From contig CAZSCV010000004.1 of NCBI GenBank assembly GCA_964605525.1, forward strand, positions 38,667-102,666: a stretch of 64,000 bases of DNA, in the 5' to 3' direction. Shown piece after piece: positions 5,829 to 57,257 of the stretch. The first letter of the stretch is position 1. Each line of letters starts with the position of its first letter. Made by a program: the position numbers and the translations under genes. Below the pieces are notes generated by a model that ran no database searches, was not told the DNA's origin, and saw nothing but the letters and a program-made list of their open reading frames with translations. The stretch is from an uncultured Bdellovibrionales bacterium (GTDB lineage: Bacteria > Patescibacteriota > Minisyncoccia > Moranbacterales > UBA9337).

Positions 5829-6422
5829 TTAATCTTCTATTTCACCTATCGGAGCGCAAGCTCCTGTCTTTTGAGTAGCTGTAATCAACAAATCTCCCTT
5901 AAATGAATCAGTTTGAACACTGTTATCAGTTCCTTCCGGAAGCTCCCATTTGATCACATAAGTCCCCGCTCCCAATTCTCCCAAGGAATATTCTCCATCC
6001 TCGGTAAATTGACCGCTTGCAAGTTCAGTTGTTCCATTCGCAGCATAAATTCCAAAAACCATTTCATCGTTCAATTCTCCCTCACCATCTGGCGTACAAC
6101 CAGTTTCATCACTTTGTTCCGGCTCAGTACAGGTATTATCTTTATCATCACGAAGATCAACACTTGCCACTCCGCACGCCGCCACACCAGTGGAGCTTAT
6201 TGCAAATGTTTTTTCTCCATGCGACCCCGGAACCAAATTTGATTCATTAAAAATAGGCGAAGTCATTTCATCGCCATCAACATTGACAATCAAATCCAAA
6301 CTGCCGGCTGTAAATGTGTTTCCATTGCTTTCTTCCTTATCGGAAAAGAGAGCTCCGGTGGAACCGACTACAACCGCAACCGCCGCAAAAATAATTGCTG
6401 TACTTAAAAATATTTTTTTCAT
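5829..6422 (-). CDS. TasA/camelysin-like secreted protein with SipW-cognate signal peptide (paralog)
   Basis: MKKIFLSTAIIFAAVAVVVGSTGALFSDKEESNGNTFTAGSLDL. Confidence 0.6.
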   Translation of the reverse strand: MKKIFLSTAIIFAAVAVVVGSTGALFSDKEESNGNTFTAGSLDLIVNVDGDEMTSPIFNESNLVPGSHGEKTFAISSTGVAACGVASVDLRDDKDNTCTEPEQSDETGCTPDGEGELNDEMVFGIYAANGTTELASGQFTEDGEYSLGELGAGTYVIKWELPEGTDNSVQTDSFKGDLLITATQKTGACAPIGEIED

Positions 6423-6595: not shown

Positions 6596-6622
6596 TATGC
6601 AAAAAAATATTTTTGCATATTA
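6596..6622. promoter_or_regulatory. perfect 11-bp-arm palindrome atatgcaaaaa-aat-atttttgcatat, ~175 bp upstream of the TasA-like gene
   Basis: Seen directly in the sequence; candidate operator. Confidence 0.3.
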
Positions 6623-6753
6623 AATTAGATCGGTTTTGCCATTTGACTCCCCGCGCAATAATGGGCAACCATTTTTAGCTTTCTGCGCGGATCATAGCCT
6701 TCTAATTTTCTTTTTTATTTTGTACTCTCATTATCTCAACTGAGATTTTATAG

Positions 6754-8186: not shown

Positions 8187-8355
8187 ATTTTTTAGTTATA
8201 AAGTTTACACAACCAGATAACAAGACTCTCGGTTTTCCGGAAAAATGTTTTTTTCGTAGCTGTCCGTGTCCCTCGAAAGGACCGGAGAAAAAAATATTTT
8301 TCCGGAAAACCATACGGAAACCATCCAGATATGCAAATTTCAAGTTATTTGTATT

Positions 8356-26053: not shown

Positions 26054-26207
26054 CTTTCCGAAAAATAATAAATTTTTATTTTTACTCACGTCTTTGTGCG
26101 TATAAATCAAAAACTTTATGCCCAAACCAACCGATATTTAACAAAAAAGGAACAAAATAACCAAAAGGGACGGTTGGAAAAATAAAAATTTATTATTTTT
26201 CGGAAAG
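26054..26207. mobile_element. 154-bp element with 24-bp perfect terminal inverted repeats (copy A), 38 bp upstream of efp
   Basis: ctttccgaaaaataataaattttt … aaaaatttattatttttcggaaag; internal stem ccaaccg…cggttgg; ~88% identical to copy at 61117-61270. Confidence 0.55.
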
Positions 26208-45582: not shown

Positions 45583-47424
45583 ATGGACAAATTAACCAAA
45601 AATATCGGAATTATAATCATAATTTTTTTAGCTGTTTTCGGAATATCAATTCTTTTCAACTCTCCTGCCCAAAAGCCGGCGGAAATTTCCCTTAGTGAAT
45701 TGGCCAGCCAAATTAATAGCGGAAAAGTATCCTCAATAGCGGTAAAAAACAATACGCTTGAAATCGAACTTACGGACAAAACAAAAGAAAAGGCGGTTAA
45801 AGAAACTGACTCTTCGTTAACAGAATCGCTTGTTAATTACGGAGTTTCAACGGAAAAACTGCAGAATATAAAATTAGAAGTAAAAACAGACTCCGCCGCT
45901 TCTTCCTGGGCGGCCGCCATTCTTCCTTTTCTCTTGCCTTTCATTCTCATCGGCGCTTTCCTTTGGTTTATGATGCGCCAAGCGCAAAGAGGAAACTCAC
46001 AAGCTCTTTCTTTCGGCACCAGCCGAGCTCGCATGATTGATCCAAAAGACAAAAAAAATCGAATTACTTTTGCCGACGTCGCCGGAGCGCAGGAAGCGAA
46101 AGAAGAACTGATGGAAATTGTCGAATTTCTCAAGCACCCGAAAAAATTTCTGGAAATGGGAGCAAAAATTCCCAAAGGTGTTCTTTTGCTTGGTTCCCCC
46201 GGAACAGGAAAAACATTAATGTCCCGTGCTGTTGCCGGTGAGGCGCAAGTTCCATTTTTCAACATCAGCGGAAGCGAATTTGTGGAAATGTTTGTTGGAG
46301 TTGGCGCCAGCCGTGTTCGCGATCTTTTCAAACAAGCCAAGAAAAATGCGCCTTCCATTGTCTTTATTGATGAAATTGACGCTGTTGGACGGCATCGCGG
46401 AGCCGGACTTGGCGGAGGTCATGATGAACGAGAGCAAACTCTTAATCAAATACTAGTTGAAATGGACGGATTTGAAAACAATACCAGCGTGATTGTTATT
46501 GCCGCCACTAACCGTCCGGATGTTCTTGATCCTGCCTTGCTTCGTCCCGGACGCTTCGATCGCCGGGTAACAATGGATCTTCCTGATATAAAAGAAAGAG
46601 GGGCTATTTTGAGGATACACAGCAAAGGAAAACCTTTTGAAAGCGATGTCGATTTGAAAATTATCGCCCAAAGAACTCCCGGTTTTTCCGGAGCTGATTT
46701 GGCAAATCTTCTCAATGAAGCCGCTATTTTAACCACCAGGAGAAACAAAAAAATGATTAGCAATCAAGAATTGCGAGAATCAATCGAGAAAGTAATGCTT
46801 GGACCAGAAAGAAGAAGCCGGGCAATCAATAAAAAAGAGCAAGAAATTATTGCTTATCATGAAGCCGGCCACGCTTTGATTGCTTCTAGCTTGGAAAATG
46901 CCGACCCGGTACAAAAAATCTCCATCATTTCCCGCGGACGAGCCGGCGGATACACCATGTCTGTTCCGCAGGAAGACAAAAGATTGGAAAGCCGCGCGCA
47001 TTTCATTGATGAACTGGCGACGCTTTTGGGTGGATATGTAAGCGAAAAAATTACGCTTGGCGATATTACCACTGGAGCTTCCAATGATTTGGAAAGAGCT
47101 ACTCATCTTGCTCGCAATATGGTAACGCGATATGGAATGAGCGATTTGGGAGCGCGCACCTTTGGAAAAAAAGAGGAAATGATTTTCCTTGGACGGGAAA
47201 TGAGCGAAGAAAAAGATTATTCAGAAAGAACCGCGGACCAAATCGACAAAGAAGTTTCCAGATTAATTGAAGATGCCCGCCAAACAGCAGAGAATATTTT
47301 GATCAAAAGAAAAGATATTCTCAAAAAAATCGCCGATGAACTGCTTGAAAAAGAAACAATCGAAAAAGAAGAATACGACAAATTGATCGGAATAAAAGAA
47401 GAAAATCAAGAGGAAAAAGAATAA
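45583..47424 (+). CDS. ftsH: ATP-dependent zinc metalloprotease FtsH
   Basis: Two N-terminal TMs, AAA+ Walker [20 protein letters not shown] zinc motif. Confidence 0.95.
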
Positions 47425-47450
47425 AAAAACAAGGAAAAACATCTAGTCCA

Positions 47451-47595
47451 GGGTAAAACACCAAAATATTTTTCTTACACTGTCTTTGTGCGATCAGGAC
47501 AAATTCTTCTCGCCCCAACTAATCGACGATTTAAAATAAATCTACAATAATTCCAAAAGGGACACTTGGAAGAAAAATATTTTGGTGTTTTACCC
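47451..47595. repeat. 145-bp element bounded by 26-bp perfect inverted repeats (MITE-like or large hairpin), 10 bp upstream of tRNA-Val
   Basis: Left arm gggtaaaacaccaaaatatttttctt (47451-76); right arm aagaaaaatattttggtgttttaccc (47570-95). Confidence 0.5.
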
Positions 47596-47605
47596 GATAT
47601 CAAAA

Positions 47606-47679
47606 GGACGATTAGCTCAGCTGGTTAGAGCGTTGCATTGACATTGCAGAGGTCACTGGTTCGAGTCCAGTATCGTCCA
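47606..47679 (+). tRNA. tRNA-Val (GAC)
   Basis: ggacgat-ta-gctcagctggttagagc…ttGACat…cactggttcgagtccagt-atcgtcc-a. Confidence 0.85.
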
Positions 47680-47688
47680 CAAGAAAAA

Positions 47689-47724
47689 AGCCCGCAGTGA
47701 TTTCTCACTCGCGGGCTTTTTTTA
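47689..47724 (+). terminator. rho-independent terminator after tRNA-Val
   Basis: gcccgcagtga-tttc-tcactcgcgggc followed by ttttttta. Confidence 0.7.
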
Positions 47725-47732
47725 TTTCCTTA

Positions 47733-47768
47733 AGTCTTTATGTCTTATGTCTTATGTCCTTATGTCTG
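47733..47768. repeat. microsatellite (cttatgt/ctttatgt)x4
   Basis: Direct tandem heptamer-like units just past the stop of 47771..48232. Confidence 0.4.
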
Positions 47769-47770
47769 AA

Positions 47771-48232
47771 TTATTGCAATCGATCGCATACACCATCACT
47801 ATTGACATCGACAAATGCTTGTCCGCAACCTGTTCCATTCCCCCTGCCTTTTCCATCTCTCATCCCTTGTCCTTGTCCGGCGCCAACACCTTGTCCATCT
47901 CGAGTTCGCAGACCAAGTTCAGTGCGAATCTGATCAGCTTCGGCGAATTTTCCCTCTTCTGCCAAGCGATGCGCTTCGGCGAATTTTGCAAAATTTTGTT
48001 CGTTAACAACATTCATTACCCGACCCTGGAATTGATTTTGTTCCATCAATTTTTTCCATGCCTGATAATCATTGTTCTTAAATGCCTCCTCCATTGCATT
48101 GTGTCTTTCTTGGGAATAATTCGGTCCTTTTTGGGAATAATCCCCCCGATAAGCCTGGGAAACTGAGTAAGCTCCCGCTAAAATTACGGCCACCAGTACA
48201 GATGTTCCGATGATAAGTTTTTGATTACTCAT
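47771..48232 (-). CDS. small secreted hypothetical protein with Gly-rich C-terminus
   Basis: Signal peptide MSNQKLIIGTSVLVAVILAGAYSVSQA. Confidence 0.45.
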   Translation of the reverse strand: MSNQKLIIGTSVLVAVILAGAYSVSQAYRGDYSQKGPNYSQERHNAMEEAFKNNDYQAWKKLMEQNQFQGRVMNVVNEQNFAKFAEAHRLAEEGKFAEADQIRTELGLRTRDGQGVGAGQGQGMRDGKGRGNGTGCGQAFVDVNSDGVCDRLQ

Positions 48233-48327
48233 TGAGTTGCGATTTTAAATTTAATTATTATTTTTGTGAAAACGCGTTTTTCACTCACGAATTATATTAC
48301 GCCGAGTGCTTTTTTTTATTTCACAAA

Positions 48328-49104
48328 TCAATCATCCAATCCCTCGATCTCATCCTCTATCTGCATCATTTTTTGCGGAATTGGAGGTTTCCTGTCTTCA
48401 TATACCCCAATCCAAGGACGCACTTCTTTCCCATAAAAAATATGTTTTTCCTCATCTTCCGTTTCGCCCAAAACTTTTACTTGAGCGCCTTCTTCCTGAA
48501 TAATCCTCGGACGCCACAAAATATCATCTCCTTTTATTATCCAAACATTTCCATCAAAACCTTCAATTTCAAAATTATCTTTGCTTTCCAAAAAAATAAT
48601 CGTTCCGGCAATCAGCCCTATTTCCGGACGGCTCCAAACTTTCGCCCGGTATTCATCACTTCTTCCGTAATATGGAATTGAACGGGAAATACTTTTTTCA
48701 ACTTTCTCACTTAATCCTATTTGATAAAAAAGAACACCCAACGCAAGACTGAGGACAATACTAGCTCCGATGATGGCGCAAGGATTGGTGCGATATCCTT
48801 TTTTTGTGTGGCGGTAATTGTAAAATGACAAAAAAGAAACCCCCACCAGGGCGACTATCCAAAAAAATGGCAAGCTCATTGCCAGATATTCGGAAAAGTT
48901 TTCCCCGATTCGAGGATAAATATCCCAATCGCTGTTTATTAAAACAAATGCGGTACTTCCCACGGCAATTCCTCCAATAATAACGACTACGCCAAAAGAA
49001 ATCCAAACCAAATAATCTTTAACCAAAAACTTCCATTTCGGATCAGGGGTTATTTTTTCTTTCTTAATTTGTTCCAGCACCTTTCCGCTTATTTTTCCTT
49101 CCAT
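48328..49104 (-). CDS. hypothetical polytopic membrane protein (candidate anti-sigma partner of the adjacent ECF sigma)
   Basis: Lies directly downstream of the ECF sigma gene on the same strand; call rests on position only. Confidence 0.35.
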   Translation of the reverse strand: MEGKISGKVLEQIKKEKITPDPKWKFLVKDYLVWISFGVVVIIGGIAVGSTAFVLINSDWDIYPRIGENFSEYLAMSLPFFWIVALVGVSFLSFYNYRHTKKGYRTNPCAIIGASIVLSLALGVLFYQIGLSEKVEKSISRSIPYYGRSDEYRAKVWSRPEIGLIAGTIIFLESKDNFEIEGFDGNVWIIKGDDILWRPRIIQEEGAQVKVLGETEDEEKHIFYGKEVRPWIGVYEDRKPPIPQKMMQIEDEIEGLDD

Positions 49105-49225
49105 TTTTTTACTTTTTAGGACTTACGCATTTAGATAATTTCGTATGGTTTTCCAAAAAAATATTTTTCCGGAAAACCGGGATTCTGATTATTTAATCGC
49201 GTGAGTCCTAACTTTTAACAAAAAA

Positions 49226-52243: not shown

Positions 52244-52330
52244 AATCCAACGCAACGTCGGATCACGTTGCACAGCACCCTAGAATCCAACGCAACGTCG
52301 GATCACGTTGCACAGCACCCTAGAATCCAT
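52244..52330. repeat. 2.2 tandem copies of a 40-bp unit, each containing a 7-bp-stem hairpin (gcaacgt-cggatc-acgttgc)
   Basis: aatccaacgcaacgtcggatcacgttgcacagcaccctag repeated exactly; GC-enriched; between the rny 3' end and the hup 5' end. Confidence 0.6.
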
Positions 52331-55805: not shown

Positions 55806-55850
55806 CAAAAAAGTTGCAAATTTATACACATAAACAAATTTGCAACTTTT
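55806..55850. terminator. bidirectional terminator (15-bp arms) between gpmI and the RT gene
   Basis: aaaagttgcaaattt-atacacataaac-aaatttgcaactttt. Confidence 0.6.
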
Positions 55851-56890
55851 TATTTTTTAATAATTCTACTGATCTTTTTCTCAATCCCCCGCCCATCACA
55901 ATGCTTCAAAACTCCCAAATACGCCTGCAAACTTTGATTAAATTCTTCTTCTGAAATCAATCCTTCTTTCAATATTTTATGATTGAGAGATAATTTCTTC
56001 ATCATCCTCCTTTTCGTTTTCGTCCGCAAGACTCGATGATGCGGCAAAACCACATAACCCAGAAAATCAATGCCTTGCCGATATTTCCTGATGATTATTT
56101 TATTTGGATGTAAATTTAATTTCAGTTCATTTTGCAAAAAATCGCCAAGTTTTCCAATTAACTTTTCTAAATGTTTTTTATCTTCCGCCATAATTATGAA
56201 ATCGTCGCAATACCGCAAATAATATTTTTCTTTCAGGATATGTTTTGCAAATTGATCGAGTTCATTTAGATAGATATTAGCAAAGAGCTGGCTGATAACA
56301 TTTCCCAATGGCAGTCCTTTTGGAAAACTGTGAATTATTCTTTCTGTAAGCCAGATCGCATTTTCGTCTCGGATCTTTCTTTTGATAAGTTTCAGTAAAA
56401 TTTCCTGATCAATCGAATCGAAAAACTTTTTGATGTCGCATTTGAGAGTGAATATTTTTTTCTTATTGTTCTTACTTGCTTTTCTGGAAAATTCTTCAAA
56501 TCTTTTTACGCCTATATGTACTCCTTTATCAATCCTGCAGGAATACGAATCAAGAATAAAATTTTTATCAAAAATCGGATAAAGAATCCTGAAAATCGCA
56601 TGATGCAAAACTCTATCTTTCACCACAGCTTTGTGTATTTTTCGCAATTTTGGATCACAAACATTAAATGAGGTATAATCGGAATGCCGATAGGTTTTGT
56701 TTTTGAGTTCTTTGTGGAGATTGAAAATATTATCTTCCAATTTAAATTCGAATTGTTGCACGTCTATCTTTTTTGTTTTTCCTCTCTTAAATTCATTCCA
56801 CGCCAAAAATAAATTTTCCAAACTAATTATTTTTTTAAAAATACTATGACAGAAAAACTCACAATTAAGACCCCCCCCCAACGCTCTCAA
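55850..56890 (-). CDS. DGR-type reverse transcriptase
   Basis: RT motifs including RYCDDFIIMAED (YxDD box) and N-terminal LENLFLAWNEFKRGK; 346 aa. Listed ORF starts at TTG; an SD-preceded ATG at 56906 is one frame off across a (G)9 tract. Confidence 0.85.
   Translation of the reverse strand: MRALGGGLNCEFFCHSIFKKIISLENLFLAWNEFKRGKTKKIDVQQFEFKLEDNIFNLHKELKNKTYRHSDYTSFNVCDPKLRKIHKAVVKDRVLHHAIFRILYPIFDKNFILDSYSCRIDKGVHIGVKRFEEFSRKASKNNKKKIFTLKCDIKKFFDSIDQEILLKLIKRKIRDENAIWLTERIIHSFPKGLPLGNVISQLFANIYLNELDQFAKHILKEKYYLRYCDDFIIMAEDKKHLEKLIGKLGDFLQNELKLNLHPNKIIIRKYRQGIDFLGYVVLPHHRVLRTKTKRRMMKKLSLNHKILKEGLISEEEFNQSLQAYLGVLKHCDGRGIEKKISRIIKK
56871..56879. repeat. homopolymeric tract C9 (G9 on the coding strand) at the 5' end of the RT gene
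   Basis: With 8 G the ATG at 56906 (AGGA SD 7 nt upstream) would be in frame with the RT; with 9 it terminates after 13 codons. Confidence 0.6.
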
Positions 56891-56948
56891 TAAAATTGTC
56901 GCGCATAAAAATATCCTAAACTATAATCAACCGAAATTATTCTCTGAA

Positions 56949-57257
56949 TTGGAAAATTTGTACAGCGATTGTTATGACCGCGTAAAAAACTTTCCCAAGC
57001 TAGACAAACATCTTCTCGGAAAAGAAATTTTAACTTTTCTTAATGAGACTCAAAAATACTCATTAACCTCGATTCACAACAATTCTTATCTTCCTCTTGC
57101 AAGTGCTAATTTTGACTTATTCAAAAGATCGATTCGCGTTGCTGTAAATAAAAAAATTATTTCTATCGGATGGTACGGATCCCATTTGGAAATAATAATT
57201 TCCATCGGAAAAGAAATTGGCAGTTGGATCAAAAAAACAAAAAGCCCGAAGTTTTAG
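56949..57257 (+). CDS. avd: Avd-like accessory protein of the DGR (TTG start inferred)
   Basis: 102-codon open frame in AT-rich DNA; CYD near the N-terminus and the basic C-terminal …IGKEIGSWIKKTK resemble Bordetella-phage bAvd (…CYDQM…, …VGRILGSWIARVNRK). Opposite strand to RT, TR and target. Confidence 0.5.
   Translation: MENLYSDCYDRVKNFPKLDKHLLGKEILTFLNETQKYSLTSIHNNSYLPLASANFDLFKRSIRVAVNKKIISIGWYGSHLEIIISIGKEIGSWIKKTKSPKF

Follow-up and report, generated by a model that had tools for sequence, protein, structure and literature searches.

What is the long, perfect hairpin that stands between ftsH and the tRNA-Val(GAC) gene in an uncultured bacterium of the Patescibacteriota (Minisyncoccia; Moranbacterales; UBA9337)? 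It lies in the stretch of 64,000 nucleotides (nt) analysed in this study, i.e. positions 38,667 to 102,666 of the forward strand of contig CAZSCV010000004.1 (assembly GCA_964605525.1). This whole stretch is hereafter called the window, and its numbering is used wherever no other contig is named. A sequence-only reading had offered three explanations for the hairpin: a MITE (miniature inverted-repeat transposable element), a large transcript-processing hairpin or a terminator for ftsH. Comparison with related genomes points to a composite, in which a palindromic, probably MITE-like repeat sits in the middle of a resident palindrome and belongs to a family that is mobile, or is gained and lost at the DNA level.

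A resident palindrome and its insert

The geometry that had been described (26-bp perfect inverted repeats bounding a 145-bp unit, 93 bp apart and ending 10 bp before the tRNA) was confirmed in every detail by the sequence and by a script. Positions 47451–47476 (GGGTAAAACACCAAAATATTTTTCTT) are the exact reverse complement of 47570–47595, giving two arms of 26 nt each, a spacer of 93 nt and a unit of 145 nt, and the inverted repeat reaches 29 nt if one mismatch is allowed. The TAA stop codon of ftsH lies 26 nt upstream of the left arm, and the right arm is separated from the tRNA gene by a 10-nt leader (GATATCAAAA). The unit has a G+C content of 0.34, its arms being A+T-rich. A search for further copies of the 26-mer, run over the 64-kilobase (kb) window with up to three mismatches, returned two places only, the two arms themselves (0.00 expected from 100 shuffles). 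Folded as RNA, the region reaches -51 kcal/mol, compared with -24.1 +/- 3.5 kcal/mol for shuffled sequences (z = -7.7; 0/200 shuffles folded as well). The 26-mer count and the fold z-score together exclude a chance origin of the hairpin. An independent assembly of the same strain (L012) carries an identical sequence at the hairpin, in the same orientation. Two further independent assemblies of this strain (L013 and L014) end 6–10 nt past the ftsH stop (47430–47434), which may reflect coverage loss or heterogeneity at a strong hairpin.

The composite nature of the unit emerges from comparison with a sister metagenome-assembled genome (MAG; Candidatus Moraniibacteriota, bin 259), one contig of which (L003) encodes the closest FtsH (96% identity) and shares about 87% nucleotide identity with the window over the ftsH region. 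The ftsH–tRNA-Val spacer of L003 is colinear with that of the window except for one block, the flanks and the tRNA being identical. At the hairpin site, instead of 145 nt, it has an uninterrupted 34-nt perfect palindrome, GGGTAAAACACTAAAAT|ATTTTAGTGTTTTACCC (GGGTAAAACACTAAAATATTTTAGTGTTTTACCC). A MAFFT alignment with L003 places a 111-column gap at window positions 47468–47578, and blastn sets the break points at 47472/47574 with an overlap of 10 nt. The extra DNA can therefore be read as 101 nt (47473–47573) between direct copies of AAAATATTTT or, equivalently, as 111 nt at the exact centre of the palindrome. This 10-nt repeat is itself palindromic and occurs as a single copy at the centre of the sister's palindrome; the boundaries of the insert are ambiguous within it, hence the size of 101–111 nt. 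The spacer comparison in relatives that had been suggested thus returned a clear result, with the insert absent from the sister and the 34-nt palindrome kept. The parts of the locus are as follows.

45583–47424, forward strand: ftsH, 613 amino acids (open reading frame (ORF) list, translation and FtsH-named homologues)
47451–47467, forward strand: left half of the resident palindrome, 17 nt, GGGTAAAACACCAAAAT (comparison with L003)
47463–47472, no strand assigned: left copy of the 10-nt direct repeat AAAATATTTT (blastn and comparison with L003)
47468–47578, forward strand: non-coding insert, 111 nt, divergent member of family 1 (absent from L003; profile match)
47482–47492, forward strand: family motif 1, GTCTTTGTGCG (invariant in 5/5 members)
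47553–47563, forward strand: family motif 2, CCAAAAGGGAC (invariant in 5/5 members)
47574–47583, no strand assigned: right copy of the 10-nt direct repeat AAAATATTTT (blastn and comparison with L003)
47579–47595, forward strand: right half of the resident palindrome, 17 nt, ATTTTGGTGTTTTACCC (comparison with L003)
47606–47680, forward strand: tRNA-Val(GAC) (ARAGORN; Rfam tRNA, 69.6 bits)

The 26-bp arms therefore consist of 17 bp of resident palindrome plus 9 bp of the insert's own A/T-rich terminal inverted repeats (ATTTTTCTT ... AAGAAAAAT), which lengthen the resident stem from 17 to 26 bp and whose homologues in the other family-1 copies, described below, are TTTTTCTTTTT ... AAAAAGAAAAA. 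The resident palindrome folds on its own at -20.9 kcal/mol (z = -7.5), and its right half differs from that of the sister by one compensated pair (C-G in the window, T-A in the sister). Its 17-mer is locus-specific, being found only here and at the sister's orthologous site among the window and 38 fetched loci. Conservation at this locus in relatives with no copies elsewhere had been named as a pattern favouring a locus-specific RNA structure over mobility; the outer arms follow it (unique, and shared with the sister, the only close relative in which this spacer is retained), whereas the core, absent from the sister and present in copies elsewhere, does not. The sole ORF inside the unit is a 42-codon frame with a TTG start on the minus strand (47475–47603), which cannot exist in the sister, where the greater part of the frame is lacking.

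A dispersed family with two invariant motifs

An inverted-repeat scan of the window revealed two more units built in the same way, with 39-nt arms and 76 nt between them, and the core strand of each is antisense to both of its flanking genes.

26054–26207, forward strand: family-1 copy, 154 nt, in the rpsR (S18)–efp spacer (172.5 bits)
61117–61270, forward strand: family-1 copy, 154 nt, in the inorganic pyrophosphatase–trigger factor spacer (174.8 bits)

Together with two copies in the sister MAG (L001 and L002), the known membership of family 1 amounts to five copies in two genomes. Motifs 1 and 2 lie exactly 60 nt apart in the three window copies (by script) and 59–60 nt apart across all five, while the stretch enclosed by these invariant 11-mers is only 48–79% identical among copies. 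Aligned on the same strand, the three window copies also share AAC.AA.CGA and TTGGAA; their arms differ. Scored with a covariance model built from all five, the copies reach 144–175 bits on one strand and 51–73 bits on the other. Since this model includes the target, i.e. the copy between ftsH and tRNA-Val, a separate arm-less nhmmer profile was built from the other four cores. This profile recovers 47481–47570 (model positions 7–96, colinear) at E=7.5e-10, the next match having E=1.5. The target core is 62–67% identical to the other cores (88–92% over the motifs); it is a true but divergent member of family 1.

Beyond these five copies the family appears very restricted. A scan for the two motifs in one genome per GTDB species found one other genome only, which is again bin 259. 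The exact two-motif pattern was absent from metagenome and viral contig collections, and all 15 matches to a relaxed pattern in metagenomes were rejected by the covariance model (<=17.6 bits). Phage and plasmid collections gave no blastn match. Another ~7.6 kb past the window's right end yielded no new copies, and in ~72 kb of this genome the core subtype of the target was seen only once. A core-less copy of the palindrome that hosts the other four members was sought and not found, and no longer element with the family's ends was found in the window or the 38 fetched loci.

Family-1 copies and other small palindromic elements occupy the same spacers differently in related genomes, as set out here by spacer.

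ftsH–tRNA-Val: palindrome plus family-1 core in the window; bare 34-nt palindrome in the sister; filled by an 88-amino-acid GIY-YIG ORF in L004/L005 (FtsH 90% identical)
S18–efp: family 1 in the window; another nested palindrome, of ~150 nt (family 3), in the sister
Inorganic pyrophosphatase–trigger factor (tig): family 1 in the window; family 3 in the sister; empty, 54 nt, in the outgroup L035
tig–clpP: arms-only relic in the window; full family-1 copy in the sister; empty, 74 nt, in the outgroup L035
59669–59726, forward strand: the core-less relic of the trigger factor–clpP spacer, made up of a left arm of family 1 and, after it, a small palindrome

At the sites orthologous to the three window copies, the sister has no family-1 element (0/3), and the ftsH–tRNA-Val spacer shows three different states in three relatives. 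In more distant relatives (L006–L011, about 77% FtsH identity), ftsH is followed by a DUF7544 gene and tRNA-Val is lacking. With another gene after ftsH in these and the GIY-YIG ORF in L004/L005, there is no outgroup for polarity at this site. In this region of the latter two contigs (L004 7820–8250; L005 2154–2590), the GIY-YIG ORF stands alone and overlaps the start of the tRNA, and a partial second tRNA-Val 3' half follows the tRNA.

Several properties expected of a MITE are found in the inner part of the unit. The insert measures 101–111 nt and full copies 145–154 nt, with no conserved frame seen by eye (a 7-codon frame of one family-1 copy, for instance, is not kept in the others by the same inspection). 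Its terminal inverted repeats are short and A/T-rich, and the host palindromes lengthen them. Copies are dispersed over three unrelated loci in 64 kb, plus two in the sister MAG, and presence/absence polymorphism is seen at ftsH–tRNA-Val, S18–efp, inorganic pyrophosphatase–tig and tig–clpP. Of the earlier proposals, that of a MITE is thus the closest, but it applies only to the inner ~101–111 nt, a dispersed and presence/absence-polymorphic repeat, and not to the 145-bp unit, which is not one element.

We propose the following history. A 34-bp perfect palindrome between ftsH and tRNA-Val is common to the window genome and its sister, and in the former a ~111-bp non-coding, A+T-rich repeat lies at its exact centre, its own ends extending the arms. 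The family would move, or be gained and lost, in spacers between co-directional housekeeping genes of these two sister Moranbacteria. Most likely the repeat arrived by inserting into the middle of the palindrome (AAAAT|ATTTT), where a TA target can be read (AAAA-TA-[TTTTTCTT...AAGAAAAA]-TA-TTTT). Alternatively, the sister may have lost its insert by hairpin-stimulated slippage deletion between the 10-nt repeats. We favour insertion here, and consider it appreciably likelier than deletion in the sister, because the other four cores lie in a different palindrome and placement elsewhere is lineage-specific. The flanking 10-nt repeat is palindromic, and symmetric cuts from TA up to 10 nt all fit it, so that it could be either a target duplication (TA in the minimal reading) or the substrate of a slippage deletion. 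Mobilisation would take place in trans by a transposase-type enzyme, which we infer, as we do the direction of the event; the invariant 11-mers may be binding sites for whatever mobilises the element.

Several observations weigh against this history. The target duplication is ambiguous, given a palindromic target and palindromic ends, and none is visible at the other four copies. A recent insertion would call for an unseen source copy, as the target core is 33–38% diverged from the others. Only five copies in two genomes are known, the collection-wide scans having given no others, and the polarity of insertion or deletion at the target site is without an outgroup. No transposase, integrase or recombinase domain was found by Pfam among ~40 ORFs of the 64-kb window, nor in the neighbouring genes called in the fetched loci. 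The invariant 11-mers could equally mean an RNA or a protein-binding function. One ORF was considered as a possible autonomous partner and rejected: at 1293–1989, 40-nt inverted repeats (83% identity, 617 nt apart) bracket a 196-amino-acid ORF whose domains are a winged helix and a PaaX central (Cas2-like) domain, i.e. a winged-helix/PaaX-like protein with no transposase domain.

A bolder version, which we regard as unlikely, holds that the core is no ordinary MITE but a mobile module homing to the apex of DNA palindromes or hairpins, either by their structure or by the AAAT|ATTT centre. If so, the 11-mers 60 nt apart would be sites for the mobilising protein or a functional RNA, and the Watson–Crick co-variation of the arms would betray a single-stranded hairpin intermediate. 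The different families in the same spacers of the sister would then reflect competition for hairpin targets, and movement would occur in the small genomes typical of this phylum without a recognisable transposase nearby.

Further miniature palindromes were found in these genomes.

49117–49210, no strand assigned: related nested-palindrome MITE, 94 nt (absent from L003 and L004)
8231–8311, no strand assigned: family-2 hairpin, 81 nt (arms of the TTTTCCGGAAAAAT type, conserved loop GTAGCTGTCCGTGTCCCTCGAAAGGACCGGA)
L002 2040–2116, 2920–2996 and 4555–4632, and L004 5850–5922: family-2 copies (also in L005)
L031 9725–9900, L032, L033 and L030 9800–9960: family-3 copies of the sister MAG

The element at 49117–49210 has terminal repeats TAGGACTTACGC.../...GCGTGAGTCCTA and a central palindrome (GGTTTTCC..GGAAAACC) of the same type as the family-2 arms, which is also similar to those of the other family-1 copies. 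The element has a folding energy of -39 kcal/mol (z=-7.7) and is flanked by a 6-bp duplication (ACTTTT), and the orthologous site is empty in two relatives; it is a clean, textbook insertion. Family-2 hairpins measure ~77–81 nt, are flanked by outer imperfect repeats (ACTTGCGC...TAAATAA) and have no Rfam match; one lies between tilS and ftsH in L004 only. Family 3 is a ~150-nt multi-layer palindrome with the core GTTTTGCATTCGCGCAAAA and, in L030, 26-nt perfect arms. It is absent from the window and fills the S18–efp and inorganic pyrophosphatase–tig spacers of the sister, the sites of window family 1. Miniature palindromic elements are clearly active in these genomes, or were so until recently.

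Structured RNA, transcription and other explanations

Could the family encode a structured RNA instead? Such a family (small RNA genes or cis-acting mRNA elements) would consist of a ~100-nt core on a long stem, the target copy being co-transcribed with, or processed from, the tRNA-Val precursor. The two invariant 11-mers at fixed spacing, enclosing a stretch that is only 48–79% identical, suit this idea, as do extensive covariation along the closing stem and covariation at two pairs of an inner GTC/GAC helix; moreover, all copies lie between co-directional genes and are hence probably transcribed. Across the five copies, 99.5% of the stem cells in 41 predicted pairs form a standard pair. Of these, 15 pairs have changes on both sides and none (0) has a one-sided change of the G-U type, values that exceed all controls. 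Such strict Watson–Crick double changes, without G-U intermediates, are expected of a DNA palindrome and less so of a G-U-tolerant RNA helix. Selection on a hairpin intermediate can maintain such stem symmetry, but it can also arise without selection, by quasipalindrome template-switching (PMC7202029), a caution that apparent 'covariation' need not mean that RNA structure was selected. By itself, the 101-nt interior folds with the stability of shuffled sequences on either strand (z = -0.45 on the forward strand and -0.90 on the reverse), and both strands of the element fold about equally well. Relative to the co-directional flanking genes, one copy (the target) is in sense and four are in antisense orientation. 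Copies are absent or replaced at the sister's orthologous sites, and their distribution is very narrow. Neither a conserved promoter nor a conserved terminator was seen by eye around the family-1 copies, a consensus scan having been made at the target only.

Rfam 15, searched at E<=10 around the target and at gathering score over the whole window, returned only the tRNA near the target. For the copy at 61 kb, a search at E<=1 gave sub-threshold plant microRNA-precursor models (<=38.6 bits; gathering scores 74–245), i.e. generic long hairpins, and identity with a known RNA family was therefore ruled out. Two further candidates were set aside. An interior RNA helix (GUGCG.../...CGCAC) has an inconsistent register across copies in an interior that folds no better than shuffles, and an interior promoter matches at 9/12 positions in the target alone and is not conserved in the alignment. 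Given the stem symmetry, the interior fold, the mixed orientation and the lack of an Rfam match, we rank a structured RNA well below a DNA-level repeat and consider it improbable.

The proposal that the hairpin terminates ftsH transcription is not supported. No terminator-like site was called in 47000–48400, and the A/U-rich stem of the hairpin is followed by GAUAUCAAAA, with no U-tract; a likely terminator follows the tRNA instead.

47684–47722, forward strand: G+C-rich hairpin between an A-run and a T-run (perfect 12-nt inverted repeat and sequence)

The orthologous site in L003 was called terminator-like, and 47684–47722 is likely to be the intrinsic, bidirectional terminator that closes the ftsH–tRNA-Val unit. 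Just beyond it, at 47738–47766, short tandem TTATGTC-like heptamers, present in L003 too, adjoin the stop of a minus-strand ORF (47771–48232). Since the scan called no terminator-like site in the ftsH–tRNA spacer, the two genes, together with the element, are probably co-transcribed. Orthologues of the ftsH ORF (45583–47424) carry the Pfam domains FtsH_ext, AAA and Peptidase_M41. The transcript would carry a hairpin of -50 kcal/mol whose perfect duplex of 26 bp ends 10 nt upstream of the RNase P site, and by analogy with Correia elements this hairpin is a candidate RNase III-type cleavage or stability site. The resident palindrome may itself be a processing or stability site; the insert is dispensable, because the sister does without it.

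A locus-specific RNA hairpin, acting as an ftsH 3' stabiliser or terminator or in pre-tRNA-Val processing and simply lengthened here without mobility, its likeness to the other copies being coincidental, would accord with an outer 17-bp stem that is unique, kept in the sister with one compensated pair and strongly folded (z=-7.5). It accounts for the resident palindrome only and not for the 111-nt insert, whose sequence is homologous to four elements at unrelated loci (E=7.5e-10) and is missing in the sister as one block bounded by the 10-nt direct repeat. The lack of a U-tract or terminator call, and the likely terminator after the tRNA, also speak against it, and we give it little credence. 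Equally doubtful, in our view, is that the palindromes grew by replication template-switching or hairpin-primed copying, which would create nested inverted repeats within A+T-rich spacers and homogenise them, the core spreading by gene conversion and not by a transposase. In its favour, perfect arms with double substitutions only are the expected outcome of quasipalindrome template-switching (PMC7202029), the elements consist of several layers of nested palindromes, no transposase was found, and the alternation of families 1 and 3 in two shared spacers resembles replacement at fixed sites more than random hopping. Yet the element at 49117–49210, with its 6-bp target duplication and a site empty in two relatives, implies cut-or-copy-and-paste, and conversion needs homologous flanks, whereas the target's host palindrome is unrelated to that of the other four copies.

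Least probable of all, and in our judgement very unlikely, is an inverton in which the 26-bp repeats flip the 93-bp interior and so change tRNA-Val or antisense-ftsH transcription. Perfect repeats around a short segment would allow it, and that segment holds a promoter-like match (TCGACG-17-AATAAT, 9/12, 47523–47551), although a weak one that is not conserved in the other copies. The target core is oriented opposite to the other four relative to the flanking genes, and inversion of Correia elements has been reported (cited in PMC10969869). The two assemblies that break 6–10 nt after the ftsH stop might be taken as a sign of flipping, but they break upstream of the repeat and not at its arms, and in L012, the one other assembly to span the site, orientation and sequence are identical. 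No invertase or recombinase domain was found in the window.

Wider significance and comparison with known systems

For annotation, these results mean that the 26-bp repeat should be read not as a regulatory invention of the ftsH–tRNA-Val locus but as a repeat inside an existing palindrome. They also show that very small genomes of the Patescibacteria (candidate phyla radiation) carry several families of nested-palindrome miniature elements, which turn over quickly between housekeeping genes, with different elements in the same spacers of the sister. If transcribed, such elements would place long perfect duplexes in operon transcripts and tRNA leaders and could affect their processing.

Other features of the window deserve mention in their own right. 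A group I intron (Rfam RF00028, 86 bits, 37382–37613) splits a minus-strand tRNA at 37334–37638 in a tRNA cluster. The flanking exons rebuild a cloverleaf with the anticodon loop CU-GAA-AA, giving a tRNA-Phe(GAA) that has no ARAGORN call. A c-di-GMP-II-GAG riboswitch aptamer on the minus strand (6619–6711; RF03169, scoring 43.1 bits where the gathering score is 40) lies upstream of a camelysin-like peptidase M73 gene (5829–6422). At 55850–57257, a minus-strand reverse transcriptase (RVT_1, 346 amino acids) adjoins a small ORF whose sister counterpart has a weak bAvd match; we read this as a probable diversity-generating retroelement, which the sister genome has too. A 40-nt block at 52244–52283, bounded by the direct repeat AATCCAACGCAACGT, is missing in L012 and represents a strain-level insertion/deletion.

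Among known systems, Correia elements (CREE/NEMIS) of Neisseria have a TA target, which the TA-flank reading of the present insert would match. They further resemble the present family as 100–155-bp non-coding, intergenic MITEs with terminal inverted repeats around a conserved core, and their presence/absence likewise differs between related genomes (PMC2649163, PMC10969869). Correia elements occur in many copies and are co-transcribed, their long hairpins being RNase III substrates, and they can supply promoters (PMC2649163, PMC10969869). In contrast, the present family has no sequence relationship to them and resides in Patescibacteria (Moranbacteria), its long perfect repeat is partly borrowed from a resident palindrome, and its arms vary while the subterminal 11-mers are invariant in the five copies known.

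REP, BIME and REPIN sequences are likewise intergenic palindromic repeats between co-directional genes, REPINs being hairpin-forming doublets that behave as mobile units (PMC3116915). Mobile DNA is known to land inside such extragenic palindromes, e.g. IS1397, ISKpn1, ISPpu9/10 and ISPa11 (PMC1525189, PMC12288879), with the same geometry as the present core at its palindrome centre; those elements, however, are full insertion sequences with a transposase and not ~110-nt non-coding units. REPs are imperfect palindromes 20–40 nt long, G+C-rich, marked by a conserved 5' tetranucleotide, present in hundreds of copies and linked to RAYT (a Y1 transposase). Membership of the REP/REPIN group was rejected for the present family on account of its A+T-rich arms, its conservation in interior 11-mers and not in the arms, and its five copies; no gene for a RAYT (Y1 HUH transposase) was seen in the 64-kb window.

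ERIC/IRU, RUP, BOX, SPRITE and the Rickettsia RPE are also ~100–150-bp imperfect palindromes in transcribed intergenic regions, found in either orientation, with size variants that arise from internal insertions/deletions (PMC10969869, PMC3184786, PMC3049150). Their effects on mRNA stability come from the hairpin and not from a specific sequence (PMC10969869, PMC3184786, PMC3049150). They differ from the present family in having unrelated sequences and hosts in other phyla, and the latter is set apart by a fixed asymmetric core with two invariant motifs and by exceptionally perfect outer arms. A full-text literature search combining MITEs and Patescibacteria returned no relevant paper. Judged by its workings, the family belongs with the prokaryotic MITEs and nested-palindrome intergenic repeats, and we regard it as a fairly ordinary, largely explained element in an unusual host and position.

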